64,000 bases of DNA from Paecilomyces variotii (Eukaryota): NCBI GenBank assembly GCA_004022145.1, contig RCNU01000007.1; one strand, given 5' to 3'. The notes under the pieces were generated by a model. The model was not told where the DNA came from and did no database searches. It worked only from the letters and a program-made list of their open reading frames with translations. A program made the translations under genes and the position numbers. Every line of letters begins with the position of its first letter. The first letter of the stretch is position 1. Of the stretch, positions 30,734-52,073 are shown piece by piece.

Positions 30734-31999
30734 TCCGCTGTTAAATGGGATTATGTTATTCTGGAATATAGGGGGCTTTTTTTCTTTGTTTGCGGGACCT
30801 GGAAGGGGAGGTGTCACGTGGGGATAGATGACCCGAGAGTTTTACTGAGAGATGTTATATTGGATGCATTGGTACGGTAGAGAAATCTAGTAGTTGTGAT
30901 TGCTGTCGTTAACTGTCCTTAGTAGCAATCAAGGACACTCGAAGAAGTTCATTCGTATCTGGGGTTTTCTGCATATCTTTTCACTGATCTGACTGTTGCA
31001 TACTGCTAATGGGAAAGCAATCCTGCAGCTGGTAGAGCTCTCCTAAGCACTAGCTGTCCAGGGGGGATCCCGTCTGTATAAGTATACGTCCTGGGGTCCA
31101 CTTGGTTTATAGCACCCCTGATATAGATCAGCGTACCGCCAGAAGAGGCTATTTAAGCTAATAATGCATAACCTCTACATAGAATATTATCACTGGCCTA
31201 ACTCACTATGGTTGAAGTGCAATAATTTGCTGCCCATAGACTATATGTCAATATCCTTTGTTAACTACGATGAGCGTATCTACCCAGTAGCAAGTCTATG
31301 CATTAGCATTCCTACTATTTCTATACAAGAGTAGATCGGCAGCAGGACTTTAAGACTACGTACTTATTAGGAGCGTATTTCCGGACACTGGCCAATTTAT
31401 GGTATTTCATTTCGATGGTATATTTAGCCATGTGACCTTATTCTTGCTGAGTTAGCTATCCATTTCTGCTATGACTGGGAAAGATCAGTCTGGCGATTAT
31501 GTCCTATGACTATATGCTCTGTATTATCCGGTAGTGTAATGTGTAATGTGTAATGCCTTTCTTTCTGTTCTGAGAGATGGCTAGACACTGAGTAAAACTT
31601 TTGGGATATATTGCCCGTTGAAGACGTATCAGCATCTATTCGGAGACGTCAAATTGCCGACCAGTGCAAGATATTCCGCTTACATATCGATCTGCAACGG
31701 AGATCCTGGCTAGACTAAGTTATTGCACCATATTACATCTTATTGCACAAGCCCTTAGGCCGCGCCAGAGGCGCGTCCCGGTCTTGCTTATAGAACTGAT
31801 TTCTTAAACTATTATAGTAATTCACTGAATAAAAAGCTATATATAAACTTATAAGGTATAAATTATAAGCAGATAGAAATAATAGTTAATAAAATTAATT
31901 AACTAGTTATTTTGCCTATAGTTATATTATTAGAGATATTAAAAAATAAATAGAAAGAGTTATTTATAATATCTTCTTTATATTATATCTTTAGATAAG

Positions 32000-33652
32000 A
32001 TAGCTCTATGCTGGGCTATATATAATAATCTTAGCTATAGATAGCGGCCTTACCTTTTACTACTATATATTACTTCCTTATTATTATTATTATTATTAAA
32101 TTATTGCTAATATCTTTATCTATTTTTAAGTTAAATCTAGGTTTATATTAATATTTATATTAAGATTAATTTATAGGTTTAGATTCTCTTTCAGACTTAG
32201 TCTTAGCCTTATCTTTAAAATCCCTATTAATATTAGGGGTATTTATAAGGTTCTTTAGCTTAGATTTAAAACTAGGTCTAGGATTAGGGGTATTAATAGG
32301 ATATTTTAACTTATATTTCTTATGCTTAGAAATATCTGTAGAGTTTTTTAACTTAGGCTTTAAAATCTCTATAAAGTTCTTTAGCTTAGATTTAAGTAGA
32401 TATTTAGGCTTCTTAGGGGGTATTCTATTTTCAGGTCTAGTATTAATTAATATAGATGCTAGTTAGTTAAGATTAATAGCTTTCTAAGGGCTTAAATAAG
32501 TATTAGAGAGCATATTAAAAAGGATATTAAATAAGATATTTAATAGATTATTAGATAGGACTAACTGCTATAAGGCTTAGAGAGTTATATTTTAAGATAT
32601 TATTAATTATAAGGCTAGGGGGGCTAAATTCTAAGAACTTATTAGCTTCTTAAGAAAGATAATAGGTTGCTTTACTACTAGCTCTATAAATTTAAATACT
32701 ATATTATAGTAGTATTTTAGGCAGGCAGATATTATTTTAGTAATTTATTCTATTACTATAAACTCTCTAAAGATTTAAAAAAAAGATAGTAAGGTAATAG
32801 AGATATAGAGAGCCGCCTTATTTAGATATAGATAAAACCTAATAAACTCCCTATTAACCTCTATAATTTAGTTAATAGTTAGGAGCTTTATATATATCTA
32901 ATACTTATTCTAGGGGATATTATAGCCAATATAGAAGATATTAATAATTATCTTATTATCTACCTTATTATTATATATAGTAATCTTAATAAAAAAGATT
33001 AGGTGTTTTATATTATTTTTAGGGGTAAAATTAATTATCTAGCTAATTACTTATCTATTAAATAATAGTATTAATAAGATTAAATAGGGGATATAGCTAG
33101 TATACTCCTCTAAGCTAAGGTTACCCTAGTATAAAATATACAGATAAGCTTTAATTATAATCTTAAGGGCATTTAGTAGGTCCTATTTAATAAATAAAAC
33201 CCCTATATATACTATAATAGTATTAGGTAAAAATTTTAATAAGGGGTTATTATAATACTTAATTATTATATTAATAAAGTCTATAATAATTAGATCCTTA
33301 AAATAAGTATATTCCTTTATAACTGTATAGAAGTTAAAGACTAACTATAAAGCCTTTAGCATTGCCTATACTAAGTTTAAGACTATAATACCTATAATAG
33401 TATAATAATTAGTATTAATAGTAGCAGATATAATAATAAAGTAATAGAGGGGAATTAAATTAAATATTATTTAATATAAATAAATAACTATAGTCTAAGT
33501 AAGAAATAATATATAATAGAGCAGACCGACTTACAGGTAAAATATCCTTTATATATAGAAATTAATAGCATAATCTTAGGGAGATAATCTTAAAGAAATA
33601 ATTTTAATCTTCTAGAATATCTTTAGCAGTAGTATAATTTTAATAATAGCAT
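32000..33652 (-). pseudogene. Second Helitron ORF relic downstream of RepHel, intron-containing, possibly tandem OB-fold
   Basis: Candidate ATGs at 33652/33572 and a GTAAGT donor at about 33534. De-RIP reading gives beta-rich segments KYYNNP..DTIVV..G.LFV, GDPS.EEY..P and WNKYW..KLPT..IVEV.GEF.G, then a low-complexity tail. The fold assignment is inference. Confidence 0.4.
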
Positions 33653-33679
33653 AATCTTAATTACCCTATTAAAGATAGA

Positions 33680-36600
33680 TTTTAAACAGTCCTATATTAT
33701 TAGAATTAGTAGAGTCTAATTTTATTAAATCTAATAATATAGTTCTTAATAGATAAAGTAGGTCTAGGGCTAAAGCTAAGATTAATAAAGCGGGTAAAGC
33801 AAGTAGATTAAGGGGTAAAATAAAGAAATACTAAAGAACCTCTAGATAAACCTTATTAATAATTAATTAGGCTTTATTATCTGGGGAAAAGAGAATTAAT
33901 AGATTTTAGGCCTAAGTTATTTATAATATAATAATATAGAACTAACTATAAATAAAAATAGAGGTTTATAGATTTATCTTAATATATTTTAAGAACTATT
34001 CTTAAGATTTATTAATAATTATAGTAAAGGCTAGCTAAATAGAGAACTAAAGGCGGTATAATATAAAATAGAACTTATTAAGGGCTATTATTAGCTTAAT
34101 ATAAAAAATAAGATAAGTCTCCCTATTAAAATTATTATTATTAAGGCAAATTTTTAAATAATAAATAATTATATATAGCAGGATTAGCTAGATATTATTA
34201 TAAAATTCTTTTAAGGAATTTATATTATATATTAAGATAAGAGGAACCCCTATCTTTACCTACAGCTTAGCTAAAGAGATCTTAATTAAAATAATATTAT
34301 AAAAAATTTTAACACTAATCTTTTTATATAGCAGACCTTTATTAAGGTTATAAGTATTTATTAAGTATAGTATAATAATATCCCTAGGGAATTAAGCTAG
34401 CAGGTAAATATTAATAGATTTAATATCTATATTTTAAGAGGTTAGAATAATATAGCTATAAAAAAATCTTAAGTTTTAAAAAATAATCTATAGGTTATAA
34501 GGTGGGTAGATATAATTAATAAACTTATCTATATTAATAATCTAGTAAATAAAGGATAGCAGTAAGATATTGCTTATTAACTCTAGCTTATAGCTAAATT
34601 ATAATAGCTAATAAATTAATTAATAATTCTCTTAATTTATTATCTTTAGCTATATATTTTTTATAAGCAGTAATACCTATAATTAGTTAAAAATATAAAT
34701 ATATTAAAAATAGGCTTCTATAATCTATACCTAATTATTATAAAAAATAATAAGTAAGATTTATTAGAAATTATCTCTTAAAATAGTTAAGATATTATTA
34801 AAGGGCTTATTATATCTAGGCAGGTTATAATAAAGATCTTATAAGGTATAATCTATAGTATTATATATATAATAATATATTATTATTATCTTATCCTAGA
34901 TAATTAAAGAGATTGCCTAGATAAGGTCTATTAAATATAAGCTATAGTTAATATAGTAAATTAACTCTTCCTTAATATTAATTAGAATATAGAATTATTT
35001 ATAGGCAATATAACCTTTAAGAAGAAATAAAATAGCGATCCTTATTAAGGTAATATAAAGAATAATCTTACTTTAAGACTAGAGGTAGCTATATAATATA
35101 ATATAAAGAAAGGTCTTTCTTATATCCTTAAAACTATAAAAGAAGAAATAAGTATCTATTAGGGTATTTATTATAGCTTTAATAATTATATTAAAAGCCT
35201 AATACTAGTTATAATTTAATTATAAGATAAGATCCTCTACTTATTAAATAAGTTTAATATAATTATAGCTTATCTTTTAAAGAATCTTTAGATTTAGGGC
35301 AGCCTTATATTAATTATTTAAATAAGGAGAGAGCTAATAATCTTTTAAAATCTTCTCCTCTATTAAGAGATTAATAGTAATAAAAAAAAAGCTATAATTA
35401 TAATAGGGAATATAATTAAAGATAAGATTATATTATAATTAATTATACTAAATATAATACTCTAGGTTATTATAGATATTATCCTTATATTTCTCTTAAA
35501 GCCTGCTAATATTTAAAAGGTCCTTAAAGATTATTATTATAAAGAATAATTAATAAAGTTAATAGCTAGTCTCTATATAATAGGCTTCTTTAAAGTATAA
35601 ATCTTATTTATTTTTACCCTATAAGATTCTATAAATATAATAGGCCTTATAAAATATTAGATAGATATAACTATCTATAGTCTAAATATTCTTAAAGCTT
35701 ATAAACTTATAGACTATTATAAGCAGATAGTAAAAAAAGTAAACTTTCTTATAAAATAATAATACCTACTTTACCTAATTAATTTAAAAGGCTTTTATTT
35801 AATAATATATCTATTTCTTTTTTTTCTATTTTTAAATAAAATAGTAAAGAAAGTTATAGAATAATAATAACTTAAAATTCTCTATATTAGCTTTATATAA
35901 TAATAGCAGTAAAAGCTTACTTACTCTCTTATTAATATTATATTAGAGAAAGGCTAATAATTTTAATAATACTTACTCTAAATAATTAGTAAGCTTTTTA
36001 ATAGACGCCTTTATATTATAGATAATAAGGTAATCCTCTAATAGGTAAATATAGAGGGTATAAATATTAGGACTAATCCTATAGGTAAAAAATTTAAAAA
36101 GATACTAAATTACTTCTAATACCCTAATATAATAGCTATTAATATAATTATAAATCTTATTAATACCTATATTTAGCTCTATAATTATATAGTTAAGTCT
36201 CTTATAGATATATTTATATAGGTATTTAATTATCTTAATACTGCTATATATCTTTATATTAATATAGGCCTTATACTACTATATCAGGTAAGGGTTATAG
36301 AGAATAACTTATTTATTCTTAATCTCTAAGAAGCTATTTACTTTAATTAAGTCTTAAATTTAAATCTATATCTTTTTTTCTTAGCAATACTTAAGATAAA
36401 AATCTTTAGTTAAGATAGTTTCTTTATAAAAGGGCTTAAGAAAATTTTTTAAGCATCTTAATACCCTATTAATCTCTTTTATATAAGGGGCCTTAGGATT
36501 ATAATAGCTATATAATTAATAGATTAGATTAATAGTAATAATATTATAAAACTTAAGATTCTGCTATTTCTAGAGTTTTAGCTATTTAAAGGTTGCTTAG

Positions 36601-38800
36601 CTATTAATAATAGGCTTAGGCTTATTAATAGTAAAAATCTCTATATAAATAATCTTATTAATATATTTAATAATAAATATTTTAAAGCTGCCTTTAACTT
36701 AAAGAAGAAAATAAATATAAAGGAGATTATATTTCTAATATTTAACTACCCAGATATTAATAATATATTCCCTAAAGATTAAATCTTTATATAGCTTAGA
36801 TATAAGTTTTAACAGCTTAATATAGAATATATAGGCTATTAAGTTAAGATAATTTTCCTAAGACTAAATAGGAACGCTAGTTGCGTCCCTAATAAGTTTA
36901 GCCTAAATCTTATTCTAATATAGGTTTACTATAAAAGTAATAAAAAGATAAGGCTTTTTAAATTTATAGATAATAGCTATAGAGTCTTAATAGTACTATT
37001 ATATAAAGCAATTACTACCTATAAAGCTTAATAGAAGAATATATAATTTATTTATATTAATAGGATTAGTGCTAATAGCTATAGTAAGAGCTATTTTAAT
37101 AATATTATATCTCTTAGCTTAGAGTTTATTTTAGTACTGTTTAAACTAATTTAACTTATACTACTTAATAAATAATTATAGATTTATAATAAATTATTAA
37201 TAAAGATAGCTAGTATATTATACTATATTAAAATTATCTAGGTATTAAAATAAAAGCTAGTAATAATAAATAAGTAATATAATTTATATCTATTAATATT
37301 TTTAGCTTCTATAGATAAGACTTAGCAGCTAAAGCTATTAGTACTAACCCCTTTTATCTTAAAAAAAAAAGAATATATTAGAGGAGAATATATAGCAGGT
37401 GCAAATAGTAGATTAATATAAGATATTATCTTAAATTAATTTACTAGATTATTAAGGAGCCCTAGAGAGCCGATATAATTTTCTCAGTTTTATCTTTATA
37501 TTATAGCTATAAGTTATATTTAAAAATAACCTAGGGTATATTATTATTATCCCTAAAGTAGATATTATCTTTTAATATCTTATTATTATTAGATATAATA
37601 TCTATATTCTTTTTTAACTAATTAGATATTAAGTATTATAAAAAGGGGGATTTAGTAAGGTAAAGATAGATATTATAAAAACTTACCTAATTATACTCTT
37701 TTATAATATTTAAAATAAAGCCTATTAGTTCTATTATTGCAGTTGCCAGATTATAAAGATACTTATTATCTTTATTAAGGATTAAATATAACTATAGGAT
37801 AAGATACAGGTACTATAATCCCTAATTAATATAATATTTAAGGATATTATAAGCATAATAAAAGACTCTTTAAAATAAATTAATCTTATAAAGTAATATA
37901 TCTAATTACTATATAATCTTAATATATATCTAAGGTATTAAATTATATTCCTGTTATATTTAATCTGCCTTTTAAAAATTAAGAAAATAGAGCTATATAA
38001 AAGAGAGTATTACTCTATATAGGGGGCTAATTTAGTAATAAAATACTCTCTATAATTAAAAGACTTACTAGTATTGCTAAGGGGCTAAATATTAGTTATT
38101 TATATAGGCTATAGAGGTAAAGGCTAGTAATATATTAATTAACTAGATATTTTTATAAAAGAGAATTAACTTTAGATTATTATTATTAAGGTATTTTTTT
38201 AATAATAATAGCGGCTCTTGTATTAATTCTATATTAAGGCTAGGCTTTATACTACTACTCTTATAGTAATAGTTAAAGATATTACTATTAATAATAATCT
38301 TGCAGCTTTAAAATAAAGCATAATAATATTTATATTAAATATTTATATAGCTAAAGAATAATTATTACTACTCTATTATTAATAAATAAAAGGCCCTAGA
38401 AATAGTTTTAATAGCTTATAGTCTAATTTTAATTATTTTTATAGGAGGTCTGCTTTAAGATATTTTAAAATAATAATTATAGATATTATAGATAGTATTC
38501 TTTATAAAATAGTTCTAATATTAAGGGTTTATATAATATAAAGAGTAATATATAGGCTATATAGCCTCTAGGATAGAGAGAAAAGACTACTTATAATTAC
38601 TACTGGATTTATAACTAGGAAATTAAGATTAAGACCTTCTTAGCTAGGTTTACTAATGTATTTAAGCTTAAAAATAAAATTATATATAATATAAACTTTA
38701 TAACAGCATATAAGATAAGTTAGAGATAATTAAAACAGCCTAAGAAGAGAACCTACTAAAGAATCTACTAAGGAATCTAATTAATTTAAAAGAGGAGATA
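33680..38800 (-). pseudogene. Helitron Rep/Helicase (HUH endonuclease + PIF1 helicase) relic
   Basis: De-RIP reading, in order: CxxCxA..CC zinc finger (~38300); FITFTANPxW (~36915-36955); VEYQKRGLPHVH (~36705-36750); KYLYKYIYKG (~36195-36230); GPGGTGKTF (~35105-35140); IIWDE (~34890); RLQFPIRLAFAMTINKSQGQSL..VFTHGQFYVAMSRV..VYPEVL (~34060-33835). Some small frameshifts occur. Start and end are approximate. Confidence 0.9.
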
Positions 38801-40924
38801 TTTTATAATAATAACTTAATTATAATATAATTTATAAAAAGATTAATAAATAATAATAAAGGCAATAAAAATAATTATCTTATTAAAGTTATTAAAAATA
38901 TTAATAATAATATATAAGGTAATAAAGTAGATTAAATCTAGCTGTAAGACTAGCTAGTAGAGATAAGAGATATAAAATAAGCCCTTATTCCTGCAATAAT
39001 AGCTATTAATACTTAAGTTATTATTAGACTTAATAATAAGCGCTGCTGCTATATATAACTATAATACTAAGATTATTTAAAACTTATATATATATTATAA
39101 CTATATCGCATATAGTGCCTATAATTATTAACTTATTTAAGCTATCTTTTAATAATCTATTACTAGCAGCTATTATAAATAATATTAGAAGATAAAGAGA
39201 TATAATAGTTATATTAAATATAATATTAGAGTATAGTTTAAGTAAATATAATAAATAATTAATAGGTAGACTTATATAAATACCCTATTATATATAACTA
39301 GGCCTTAAATATATATTTAATACAGCCTCTTTTAGCTAACAGATAATATAGATTATATAGATTATATAGATTATATTAATATATAGTACTGCTAGAAATT
39401 ATTAAAGATAATTTAAATAATCTTAAAAATATAAGCCTTATATTAGTATTAAGATAGCTAGAATAGCAATATATTAAAAAATTAAGATAAGATATATTAA
39501 AAATTTAAAGTAAAATATAATAGAGAAATAAGGCAAACTGCAATAATTTATCTTAGGATTAATATCTAGGAATAAGATAAGATAAAATAATCCTAGGGGC
39601 TAGAACTAATCTTATAAGAGATATTCTATCTATTATCTAAAGAGAATTATATAAATATTATAAAATCTTATTTTAATATCTTGCTAATATACCTTATTAC
39701 TCTAGAATTTATTATATAATTAGAATTAATTAACCCGCTATAGAGAATATAGCCTTAATCTCTAATACTTTTAATACTCCTAACCTAACTTTAAATATAT
39801 CTTTTTTTAGTAAAGTAACTAGGTAAAAATAATTATATTAATAGCCTATATAGTAATTAAAGATATTATCTTATTAATTAAATATATAACCCTAGTTAGA
39901 TCTTATTAGAGGTTATATATAGAAATATAAAAACTAATATAATAAGTATTCCCTTCTCTAGATATAGTTAACCTCTTACTAACTAATATAGCCTATTAAT
40001 AGCCTAAATATACCTTACCTCCTGCTAAACTAAATAAACTAAATAAATTAAATAAGATTAAAGACTTAGGGTATAAAGATAATAAAAGGTTATAGATAGA
40101 GGAATCTTAAATACTATTAAATATATCTTATTTTAATAATTATAATTATAGTAAGATATTTAATAATAATAATAATAATAATAATAGCACTTACTATATA
40201 CTAATACTAGCAGGTATTAATATTAAGCCTATTATTAAAGGTATAATAATTTATACCTAGATTAATAACTATAGGATAATAGTAGTTTTAGATAGTAGTA
40301 ATCTTCTTAAAATATTAAATATATTACAGTATAATAGCTATTAGGGCATTATTAAGGTATATTAATAATAGCACTATTAGCTCTAGGAGTATCTTATATC
40401 TCTAGTTTTATTTCTTAGCCAGTTAGCACTTTATAATTAGTTAGAACTTAAATTAATTAGTATAAGGGATTTAACCTAGATATTAATATTATACTGTAAT
40501 TTAGTATTATACAGTAATATATATATTTTAATATAGTAGGTGTAGTAGTAGTATTATAGGAAGATATATTAAGACTTAGCATAGAGTCTTTAAGCGAGTA
40601 GGTATTAAGAAGGAAGAGAAGGATATTTAGCTTTAGAGCTCAGAGTAGAGCTAGAGGAGAAGCTTTAGCTGTAAACTAACATAATAAACCAATAATAATC
40701 TGATGCTAAACTGATACTGAATAATAATAGAAAGATAAAGCTGATTATTTTATTCTAAATAACTGAAAGGTATCTCCTTTCTGTCCTTTGCTGCTTTACT
40801 TATAGACTTTTTAAAGACTTTAAGCAGAAGTATATAATCTCTTAACTAATTATATTCTTTATACCGATCCTCCCCACTATAGTAGTAGTACTGACTATAG
40901 ACATTTTTAATGTTTATATCTCTG

Positions 40925-41210
40925 GTTGTTATGCCTAACTATACTGGCTTAGCATATATATTTAGCTAATAAACAAAGCCGGAGGTTAGCGGGTCTAAGA
41001 GATTTTAATATTCATACCTTTAATTGCTATACCTAACTATACCAGCTTAGTATTAGCTTCTAGCTATTAAGAGGCCCTAAAAGTTAGTGGGTCTAAAAAG
41101 TTTTAATATTCTCATAGATAGTTATTCTATATAATTATACCAATTTAGCATTTACTATCAGCCAATAAAAAAACCTAAATCTTTACCGGCCTGAGGTATT
41201 TCTACACAAT
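40925..41210. repeat. About three degenerate 98-bp tandem repeats near the Helitron 5' end
   Basis: CCTAACTATAC at 40934 and 41032 with a related copy near 41130; GGGTCTAA..TTTTAATATTC at 40991 and 41089. Confidence 0.75.
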
Positions 41211-48712: not shown

Positions 48713-49817
48713 AATTCCGGGTTCATTTATCCAATCTGCCTTCATGACATCCTGTGTAGCTATGGGAACTCCATACCGCTCGACCGAAAAGGAGAACTCC
48801 TTTATGGTCTCCCCGGCTCTAACATTAGCTATATTATAAAATGGCATGATAAAATGAAGGACGAACTTGCGGGGACCGAGGATTGCAGTGAATAAACGGT
48901 GAGCAAGATTAGAGAGAGAACATTAATCAATTTTCTGGGTGATACAACAGCAAAAAGTTTGTTTTCCACCAAATGGTAGGTGATCTAACAAACTCTCAAT
49001 GATCTTCAGTCCTTATTGGATAGAAGACAGTATCCGGTCAGTTTTTCTCGTGCATCTATCTCCTCGATATACAGAGCTTCTGGATTAGAGGACAGAGAGG
49101 ATAGACACCCACTCAGATCACTTAAGGCCTGAGTGAGCTGAGAGTCTGTCATGACGAGAAATGTAGAAAGAGCTCATATCTAGATAGAAATGAGATGGCT
49201 CGAACCTTTGGGGGCCACCTGGTTGTCGGAGTTGTCGCGCAGCCCAACTTTGGTGAATGTCGGAGTGAAGTGTTCCACGATCCCGTTCTTGCTCATTTAG
49301 GTAGCTAGCAATATTAATGATAGCTTGAAAGAGAACTCGCCGGATCTAGGAGGTTCCAATTGGAATGAGGCGGTTAAGACTTGAAGCTCTCCGGGCGAGA
49401 AGGCCAGGCAAAGGGGCCGCTGAAGCCTGGTTGGCTTCAATAATCGGCGGGGCACCTGACCCGCTGATCCGTGACCGGCGTCTCCAATTCTAGCCTGCCA
49501 TATCATCATCGCCGCCGCTGCCACTCCTGCCAACCTCTCCTTCTCTCGCCTGATTATACCACGCTTCGTCCATAAGTGTTTGCTGCCCTTCTCGCAACTT
49601 TACCTCTGAAATATTTAAGCCCTGCTGCTGTCAGGGTTCTCTCTGCCTGTTGCAACCGACATACTTCTCTAACTGCCCCGCTCTGCCCGCCGATACTTTA
49701 GGTGTGCACCGAGCTTATCAGTCCCCTCATTTCAGCACGCACTCGCTTTCAGAGTCTTTTAGCTCTTCTTAAAGCAGATAGTTCAATACTGCACCGAACA
49801 GCCTCACATATTTCAAG

Positions 49818-50915
49818 ATGAGCAGCCCCAAGCGCAGAATCGAGACCGATGTAAGTGGCTGTGACACTTTAGGGCGCAACAGATCTATGGCATTTCTATG
49901 GAGTTGAAAGCTGACCTGGGGTTCTTTTTCGCATTCATTTAGGTCATGAAGTAAGTCTTTAACCTGATTTATACAAATGTGCTCTGTGGTTTAGCTAACA
50001 TGGAACTTAGGATGTACGTTAATCCTTTGCCACCGCCTTTCCCTCCGTCTGCCTCGTCCGACGGCTCAATCCACATTATCTTGGGAAATGAAAGGATATT
50101 GATGATATAAATTCTCAGGTTGATGAGTGACTACGAGGTTACTCTAGTGAATGATAACAGTCAGTACTTGTGATTTCCCTATGGCTGGTATTCTCTGTCG
50201 CTGACTACGCTCCCAGTGTACGTCAAAATTGATTTTCCAGGGGTTACTTCTGTATTTGATGTTCATACAGCCTCTCCACAGGCAAGAATTCTACGTTCGT
50301 TTCAAGGGACCTGAAGAAAGTAGGTGCCAAGCCTTGTGATCCAATAGTCCGCATTACTGACCATGCTGTAGCGCCATTCGCTGGTGGTCTCTGGAAGATC
50401 CATGTAGAGCTGCCCGATCAATACCCATACAAGAGTCCAAGCATTGGATTCGTCAACCGTATATTCCACCCGAACATTGACGAACTGTGAGATTCCGTGG
50501 AGTGGCTTTGTATGCGAAACAGGATTAACTTGACTCCATTAGTTCCGGCTCCGTCTGCCTCGATGTTATCAACCAAACTTGGTCTCCTATGTACGATATG
50601 ATCAACATCTTCGAAGTCTTTCTTCCGCAGCTTTTGCGTTACCCCAACCCTTCCGATCCCCTGAACGGCGAGGCGGCGGCCATGCTCATGAGAGAACCCA
50701 AGAGTTATGACGCTAAAGTCCGAGGTAGGTGGTTGTTGACGCTTCGCTTGGAATGCTATCTAACCAGGATGCTCTCAGAATATGTGGCGAAGTATGCCAG
50801 CAAAGAAGCTGCGGACGAGGCTGGGGAGGACACCGAGTCGGAAGACGAAATGAGTTCAGTTGGCAGCTACGAGTCTGGCGGCGAAGAGCCTGCTGGTGAG
50901 ATGGATGACGTCTGA
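49818..50915 (+). CDS. ubc8: Ubiquitin-conjugating enzyme E2, Ubc8/UBE2H type, nine exons
   Basis: Exons 49818-49850, 49943-49950, 50011-50013, 50119-50159, 50217, 50282-50319, 50372-50486, 50543-50724 and 50779-50915 give [50 protein letters not shown] and an acidic tail. Confidence 0.93.
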
Positions 50916-52073
50916 ACGCCTAGTCCCCCACTTGGACATCTGGCACACGGGTTTGGATTACCAGGGACTATTCATATTGTATTGCATCATATTCCCCCCT
51001 TCTCACGGTTTAGTTTCACAGGAATCTGGCTAGCTGGCGTTATCTGGGCGGAGTTGAGAGGATCTCTTGCCTGGCGGCAATAGCGGGGAGTATAGGCAGG
51101 CACATTCGTCATGCCGCGATCGGCCGGTTGGGATCCGGCGACAACTTGGATGCTCAAGATCTATGATCAAACTGCTTCGCTCACTCGTCTTCCGGCTACT
51201 GGCTTCAACCTTTGACATCGGAGTTCTGCAACCTATCACATTTCCTAAGCGAGTCAATGGCTCTGCACGAGCACCATCTAGCATTGGTTTTTGGTCTTTC
51301 CCGGACTTCATACATGATACTTCCTGTCATTTACTTTACGGACCTATTCTAGAATAACAAATTAGTATAAGATATATATAAAACGAGACTCCACGCAATC
51401 ATACCCAATTCTAGACATTGCTCTAGATTGTGCAGGATATGGTGATAACGGGACGTCAAAAATCGTGTCTTGTTCATATCCGCAACATGTTCTAGTATAC
51501 TGGTTGGAAATCGCATTCATTGGTATCTATAAGAAACATCTGCCAGAGCCCCGTCTACCGACCAGCCGGCATACCATGCATATCAAAAAAGAAGGTTAAA
51601 CTAGAGGCAGAAAGTGATGACAAAGGGGAATAAGAAAATATGGAAGCAATGGATGGAAGAGTCACGGGCGGCCTATAATAAATACAGATCTGACCCTATT
51701 CCGAAATGAATTGTCGAGAGTAGACGCGGATGCTAAAACTGAAACTGAGAAAGAGTGCTACGCGAACAAAAATGCTGAAACCCGGTCACAAGACAGTACT
51801 TAAGGAAAAGCGTAAAGAAAGTGATGTCTGATGAAGGATTTCCTGCCAACCTCAGATCTGTCCAAAGCAAAGGAAAAACAAAGAGGAATGGGGTATGATA
51901 GCGGGTAGTAAGGATCTGCCTCATTCTGGGATATGACCCCAAAGCCAACCCTGACGATCAACGTGCTCAATATGTCCAGTCATAGAGCATATAGGTTGTG
52001 TGTGCAGAAAGTGAAGACGGATGGATGCTGACTTTCCACGGGAGGAGTTCGGAAGATGAAAACTTCGTGCACT

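Follow-up and report, generated by a model that had tools for sequence, protein, structure and literature searches.

A ubc8 gene of nine exons lies on the plus strand at positions 49818 to 50915 of the window, by which we mean the whole stretch of 64,000 nucleotides of Paecilomyces variotii contig RCNU01000007.1 that was analysed. The model was built in this analysis; its 558 nt of coding sequence are in frame and specify 185 residues, and all eight introns, which range from 52 to 105 nt in length, begin with GT and end with AG.

The run search listed 24 runs, and contigs of four of these (X1, X4, X7 and X11) were aligned to positions 49650-51050. X4, X7 and X11 belong to three studies and carry two organism labels; their labelling as RNA is itself a guess, and we treat them as cDNA on account of their spliced form. 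Each of these three informative runs yielded a spliced contig, in which the introns are skipped at GT..AG joints, and the sampled-word share of X4-X11 (0.47-0.54) is near the value of about 0.49 estimated for fully spliced mRNA. X1 was discarded as evidence on splicing. It offers a single contig of 10,033 letters, unspliced throughout and with 11 differences from the window, yet its library is recorded as metatranscriptomic RNA-Seq. The X1 contig is DNA or unspliced material of another, related strain.

Exon 1 (49818..49850) contributes 33 coding nt, beginning with the ATG, and is preceded by the 5′ UTR, the contigs of X4, X7 and X11 spanning 49650-49852. Intron 1 (49851..49942; 92 nt, GTAAGT..TTTAG) is spliced out in the contigs of all three runs. 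It is followed by two microexons: exon 2, of 8 nt (49943..49950), the letters of which are present between the sides of the joint in X4, X7 and X11, and exon 3, of 3 nt (50011..50013, GAT). These are separated by intron 2 (49951..50010; 60 nt), which is drawn from the model and the RNA contigs. The letters of both microexons are found between 49852 and 50119 in X4 and X7, where they end in GAT. Intron 3 (50014..50118; 105 nt) is spliced out in the same two runs. Exon 4 (50119..50159; 41 nt) and exon 6 (50282..50319; 38 nt) are given by the model and the RNA contigs alike, and between them lies the arrangement that is the subject of this report: intron 4 (50160..50216; 57 nt), exon 5 (50217..50217), which is a single T, and intron 5 (50218..50281; 64 nt).

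Further downstream, intron 6 (50320..50371; 52 nt) is removed at a GT..AG joint, 50319 to 50372, in X4, X7 and X11, and the same runs show the joint of intron 7 (50487..50542; 56 nt) at 50486 to 50543. That of intron 8 (50725..50778; 54 nt) appears in the three runs at 50722 to 50777, with a cut that can be moved two places rightward. Exon 7 (50372..50486; 115 nt) and exon 8 (50543..50724; 182 nt) are covered by the RNA contigs, and exon 9 (50779..50915) has a coding part of 137 nt that ends in a TGA stop, after which the 3′ UTR extends past 51050.

Two introns of the 5′ half were also seen in retained form. A minor contig of X4 (record 4, 49823-49951; depth 107 vs 5071) keeps intron 1, and a contig of X11 keeps intron 3 (in the piece 50011-50156), where reading on in frame would lead to a stop. 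Such contigs may represent precursors before splicing or transcripts with a retained intron.

The encoded protein matches the Pfam UQ_con domain (PF00179) in exon 7 (47.7 bits, E 1.6e-12) and again in exon 8 (54.1 bits, E 1.7e-14), the cut-off being 27 bits; the cysteine of the catalytic motif is in exon 8. A related full-length protein (P0255) scores 136.8 bits against the same domain. The best named protein matches are called ubiquitin-conjugating enzyme E2 H, E2 8 or Ubc8 by their sources, and exon 9 encodes an acidic C-terminal tail, which fits the Ubc8/UBE2H subfamily. Four proteins (P0005-P0008) from Paecilomyces variotii and P. lecythidis (Eurotiales) are 100% identical in exon 8 and 98-100% identical in exon 9, P. 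variotii providing the closest named proteins. Judged from its predicted product, the gene is a Ubc8/UBE2H-type E2 of a filamentous ascomycete. Yeast Ubc8 and human UBE2H are described as the E2 of the GID/CTLH ligase (e.g. PMC6037477).

Elsewhere in the window, a block at about 31800-41000 is AT-rich, with a GC content of about 0.21. Its TpA/ApT index is 1.37, compared with 0.74-0.77 in the flanks, and its (CpA+TpG)/(ApC+GpT) index is 0.28, compared with 1.19-1.28. Such values are typical of repeat-induced point mutation, and the block probably consists of degraded repeat or transposon sequence.

The initial annotation had proposed that one Met codon of ubc8 is split over three exons, and the sequence bears this out at every position. 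The codon belongs to the peptide N-D-N-M-Q-E-F: its A is the last letter of exon 4, its T is exon 5, and its G is the first letter of exon 6. Positions 50215-50219 read AG-T-GT, so that one genomic letter stands between the acceptor AG of one intron and the donor GT of the next, and T50217 is the sole AG-N-GT site within 50160-50281. Both flanking introns are complete, and their lengths of 57 and 64 nt may be set beside the 52-105 nt of the other introns. Intron 4 has the donor GTCAGT, the acceptor CCCAG and, as had been pointed out, a branch-site-like GCTGAC (50200-50205), which is found 12-17 nt before its end. Intron 5 has the donor GTACGT and the acceptor CACAG; it is without a strong branch motif, the weak candidate being a TTGAT about 22 nt from its end. 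Inclusion of the T gives N-M-Q-E-F at the junction and keeps the nine-exon model open over its 185 residues, while translation of a model that skips the T gives the expected frameshift and early stops. Among single GT..AG introns placed across the region (donor at 50130 or beyond, frame kept open), none restores N-D-N-M-Q-E-F.

The RNA contigs support the presence of one additional letter in the mRNA. In X4, X7 and X11, 38 letters on 50119-50156 run on without a gap into 42 letters on 50278-50319, which contain one mismatch, and the joint can be moved by three. Exon 4 ends in the same three letters that precede the final G of intron 5; the joint has therefore slid, and the mismatch is charged at 50281. 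The 38 and 42 letters with one mismatch at that position thus make 80 letters, or 41 + 1 + 38, where the extra letter is not G. Skipping of the T would leave 79 letters over exons 4 to 6, and the use of a donor at 50164 would leave 83 with no mismatch. The contigs of X4 and X7 match the exons and UTRs of the window without differences except for this junction letter. The form of the exon 4/6 junction that has the length expected with the T is the only one seen, in all three spliced contigs, a count to be read with the fact that contigs drop rare variants. Since the window's own contigs show a single letter other than G, and T is the only AG-N-GT candidate, we take the extra letter of the window's mRNA to be T. 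In the RNA check suggested in the initial annotation, the contigs thus favour the junction with the T. Intron 4 is covered by no contig of X4, X7 or X11, and no splicing intermediate for introns 4 and 5 was seen among the aligned run contigs or the 80 metagenome loci described below.

Conservation of the AG-T-GT arrangement had also been suggested as a check. Metagenome contigs scanned with the exon 8 peptide gave 80 loci, both flanking peptides being present in 71; with the window, this makes 72 anchored sequences. The Met codon is laid out as A / intron / T / intron / G in 55 of the 72, which represent 45 distinct sequences, and the AG-T-GT with its T is retained in all 45. A contiguous ATG occurs in 16 of the 72, eight of which are fully spliced transcript or metatranscript contigs, and a single locus (L058) has one intron only, as A / intron / TG. 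In the two-intron orthologs intron 4 measures 46-87 nt and intron 5 measures 50-95 nt, and their intron sequences fall into 38 groups with almost no common 8-mers. When the 124-nt stretch of the window was shuffled, AG-T-GT with both halves of at least 36 nt arose in 0.05 of the shuffles; shuffles of the 45 distinct orthologous stretches contained AG-T-GT in 0.034 on average. The observed layout exceeds chance.

One pair of loci connects transcript and genome. Exon 4 of the transcript L025 is identical to that of the genomic locus L043 at 41 of 41 letters, and in L025 it is followed by T and then by exon 6, while L043 reads AG/T/GT. L025 and L043 come from one species or from two near ones.

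Taxa were assigned roughly, by comparing exons 7-9 with 45 named proteins and taking the nearest. Those nearest to the two-intron loci include proteins from Thermoascus (L006, 142/142 residues), Parastagonospora, Pyrenophora or Alternaria, and Xylaria-like fungi, which, apart from three class labels that were checked, we take to be members of the Eurotiomycetes, Dothideomycetes and Sordariomycetes. An assignment by summed tblastn identities was dropped, as it was confounded by long mis-annotated proteins.

Other intron states are found at the same codon. At least five of the loci with a contiguous ATG (L029, L031, L061, L066 and L073) are genomic, as shown by a later intron that they still contain. 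L029, L031, L061 and L066 are divergent loci with no intron at the Met codon and with the next intron kept; in L073 all five 5′ introns are absent and the later ones are kept. Besides these and L058, the sequences with other intron states include L063, L001 and L039. The intronless loci are divergent, such that 111-123 of about 142 residues match any named protein. With relatives that have no intron (L029, L031, L061, L066) or one intron (L058) at this place, gain and loss of introns around the one-nucleotide exon become traceable.

The two small exons upstream are less uniformly kept. Among 68 anchored sequences, the 8-nt exon is retained in 37 and the 3-nt exon likewise in 37, as GAT in 34, GCT in two and GTT in one; 16 have other layouts in this region (for example, a fused 11-nt exon), and in 15 it is contiguous. 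Skipping of the 3-nt exon stays in frame, and many database proteins are consequently without one M after V-M-K.

We conclude, with a probability of roughly 0.93, that T50217 is a one-nucleotide exon, probably used constitutively, in a ubc8/UBE2H-type gene of nine exons, flanked on each side by a complete intron, the two introns presumably being removed stepwise. One competing possibility had been raised in the initial annotation, the use of a weaker donor at 50164 to give N-S-Q-Q-E-F. A single intron of 118 nt, from this donor to 50281, would then be removed, S-Q would replace M, and the T would be intronic. Translation shows that this route is indeed open and in frame, and its donor, GTACTT, could in principle serve. 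It predicts 83 perfectly matching letters over exons 4 to 6, which disagrees with the 80 letters and one mismatch of X4, X7 and X11; N-S-Q-Q-E-F occurs in 0 of 257 fetched proteins; and the 45 orthologous stretches do not generally share the additional GT that lies four letters inside intron 4. As the real route for this gene it is thus very improbable, and use of the 50164 donor is possible as a rare side product.

The one-nucleotide exon leads to systematic annotation errors, gene predictors routinely failing at this place. Among the 120 proteins listed by the exon 8 search, 64 have the upstream peptide N-D-N. It is continued correctly by M-Q-E-F in 12 of these, mostly from transcript contigs of about 1 kb. 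The most frequent continuation is S (23/64), which likely results from reading intron 4 as coding. In 14, N-D-N is followed by M and then Y, F, S or L, as would be expected if intron 4 had been spliced and the T and the next donor read as coding; such proteins are recorded for Aspergillus, Paecilomyces, Botryosphaeria, Diplodia, Plenodomus, Alternaria, Thyridium and a Xylariales species. Other wrong junctions likely account for K-F-Y (6/64), S-M-Q-E-F (2/64), T-P-F (2/64) and the remaining five proteins. The two with S-M-Q-E-F, P0102 (Thermochaetoides thermophila) and P0119 (Pseudocercospora fijiensis), have an extra S before the M, which may be a real difference in gene structure or an artefact of annotation.

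The 5′ end is incorrect in each of the four named Paecilomyces records (164, 188, 205 and 216 residues). Protein searches with exons 8 and 9, a cluster look-up and the fetched candidates produced no full-length protein of the window's own species with the correct junction, and none of the listed proteins equals the nine-exon model. P0169 (Logan) and P0171 were set aside as witnesses to the junction: the former begins only inside exon 8, and the latter has a mis-joined frame. The Thermoascus aurantiacus protein P0015 has a wrong start and the right junction; at least one public annotation therefore already includes the one-nucleotide exon implicitly.

In several database gene models of relatives the peptide is N-D-N-R-Q-E-F, as would follow from a G in place of the T. 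Together with the fact that the window's own contigs define the extra letter only as single and not G, this could be taken to mean that a single intron is removed and that the extra letter stems from a non-canonical boundary, from editing of the G at 50281, or from an artefact of the assembler or aligner. We regard this, too, as highly unlikely. The contigs of three separate studies agree with each other; in the L025/L043 pair the letter is T, and the genome supplies a T between AG and GT; and the T is kept in 45 of 45 orthologous stretches though the surrounding introns have diverged. The models with R are the product to be expected of a transcript mapper that, being unable to place a one-nucleotide exon, forces the T onto the G, much as happened when the window's own contigs were aligned. 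That the spliced contigs derive from a processed, intronless second copy, the locus itself not being spliced in this manner, is the least probable explanation, for although metagenome loci with a contiguous ATG in genomic context do exist (L029, L031, L061, L066, L073), these are divergent sequences, whereas X4 and X7 match the UTRs and exons of the window with no differences beyond the junction letter, and the retention of intron 1 in X4 and of intron 3 in X11 marks the transcripts as products of this intron-bearing locus.

How might a one-nucleotide exon be spliced? Introns of filamentous fungi are usually recognised across their own short lengths. We propose that introns 4 and 5 would each be recognised in this way by the spliceosome and removed one after the other. 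In the 45 orthologs the median distance between the branch A and the 3′ end of intron 4 is 11 nt (range 8-27), which places the A about a dozen nt from the donor of intron 5; at this distance both sites are probably not occupied at once, which points to stepwise removal. Steric hindrance at microexons, where the adjoining splice sites are too close for joint occupation, has been described (PMC4674806).

The signals of intron 4 are the stronger ones. A pyrimidine at donor position +3 is found in 7 of 45 intron 4 donors vs 19 of 45 intron 5 donors, and a YTRAY close to the 3′ end is lacking from 1 of 45 intron 4 sequences vs 16 of 45 intron 5 sequences; the sequences are related by descent, so that neither pair of counts is independent. 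Because its signals are stronger and those of intron 5 weaker, intron 4 would be removed first, whereupon the A of exon 4 and then the T would adjoin the donor of intron 5. By the rules of pairing with U1, (C/T)A before T/GT fits better than AG, adding two pairs. Removal of intron 4 exchanges the AG before T/GT for (C/T)A and would thus improve the fit of the intron 5 donor to U1. On these sequence features, splicing of intron 4 before intron 5 is somewhat favoured.

If the introns are removed stepwise, as is likely, the resemblance to recursive splicing is confined to mechanism. A zero-length recursive splice site was considered and rejected, as the T stands between the AG and the GT and the letter stays in the mRNA. 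The arrangement is like the stwintrons of Pezizomycotina in that two U2-type introns are in immediate contact and, as is likely for ubc8, are removed consecutively. In the stwintrons the inner intron interrupts a splice signal of the outer and no letter between them is kept (PMC5639578, PMC6616335, PMC12403724); in ubc8, by contrast, one nucleotide is kept between two abutting ordinary introns. A reading of introns 4 and 5 as a stwintron was rejected, since one letter stays in the mRNA and the signals of both introns are intact.

Closer parallels are found among published one-nucleotide exons. APC11 of Arabidopsis thaliana (Guo and Liu 2015, PMC4674806) has, like ubc8, a one-nucleotide exon between spliceosomal introns that is essential for the frame and has been mis-annotated. 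It is described as constitutive and was tested by GFP reporter constructs in Arabidopsis and rice (PMC4674806). The two cases differ in that APC11 is a different gene, of a plant, with another letter (A333), examined by reporters (PMC4674806), whereas the ubc8 exon is supported by assembled RNA contigs and comparative sequence. Among fungi, the CYP621A P450 genes of Fusarium (Nelson and Syed 2026, PMC12940212) resemble ubc8 in having a one-nucleotide exon in a conserved motif, with AG and GT on its flanks, that was missed by predictors; it is backed by public RNA reads (PMC12940212). There the exon is G (AG-G-GT) in 24 genes of one genus (PMC12940212), while in ubc8, which is a housekeeping E2 gene, it is T (AG-T-GT). 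Unlike the one-genus CYP621A exon, the ubc8 exon occurs in sequences with nearest named relatives in Eurotiomycetes, Dothideomycetes and Sordariomycetes.

The Fusarium CYP621A paper counts its case as the second of its kind and the first fungal one (PMC12940212). A long-read annotation of Coprinopsis cinerea, published before that claim (Cell Genomics 2025, PMC12230235), counts 13 one-nucleotide exons in 13 genes, as well as 57 exons of two and 27 of three nucleotides, which establishes one-nucleotide exons as a feature of fungal genes. Coprinopsis cinerea is a basidiomycete, and the passages of that paper on these exons name no ubc8 case and describe no conservation across classes (PMC12230235). 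Our full-text literature search, the scope of which was articles outside subscription journals and without supplements, found no one-nucleotide exon for ubc8 or UBE2H.

The exon of ubc8 joins the published one-nucleotide exons of Arabidopsis, Fusarium and Coprinopsis, and is unusually widespread. It is notable for its wide retention, for the 3-nt and 8-nt exons that adjoin it and for the annotation errors that it has caused. We offer tentatively, as a possibility that we consider rather less likely than its opposite, that the AG/T/GT exon had a single origin, early in the ancestry of Eurotiomycetes, Dothideomycetes and Sordariomycetes, and was kept by descent from then on, with strictly ordered splicing of intron 4 and then intron 5. 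If this is true, no other known one-nucleotide exon would be as widespread and probably none as old. The ubc8 gene, with its exons of 1, 3 and 8 nt, would then be a natural substrate in which a spliceosome that works by intron definition is seen to require practically no exon, and the ordered splicing steps might gate the amount of Ubc8.
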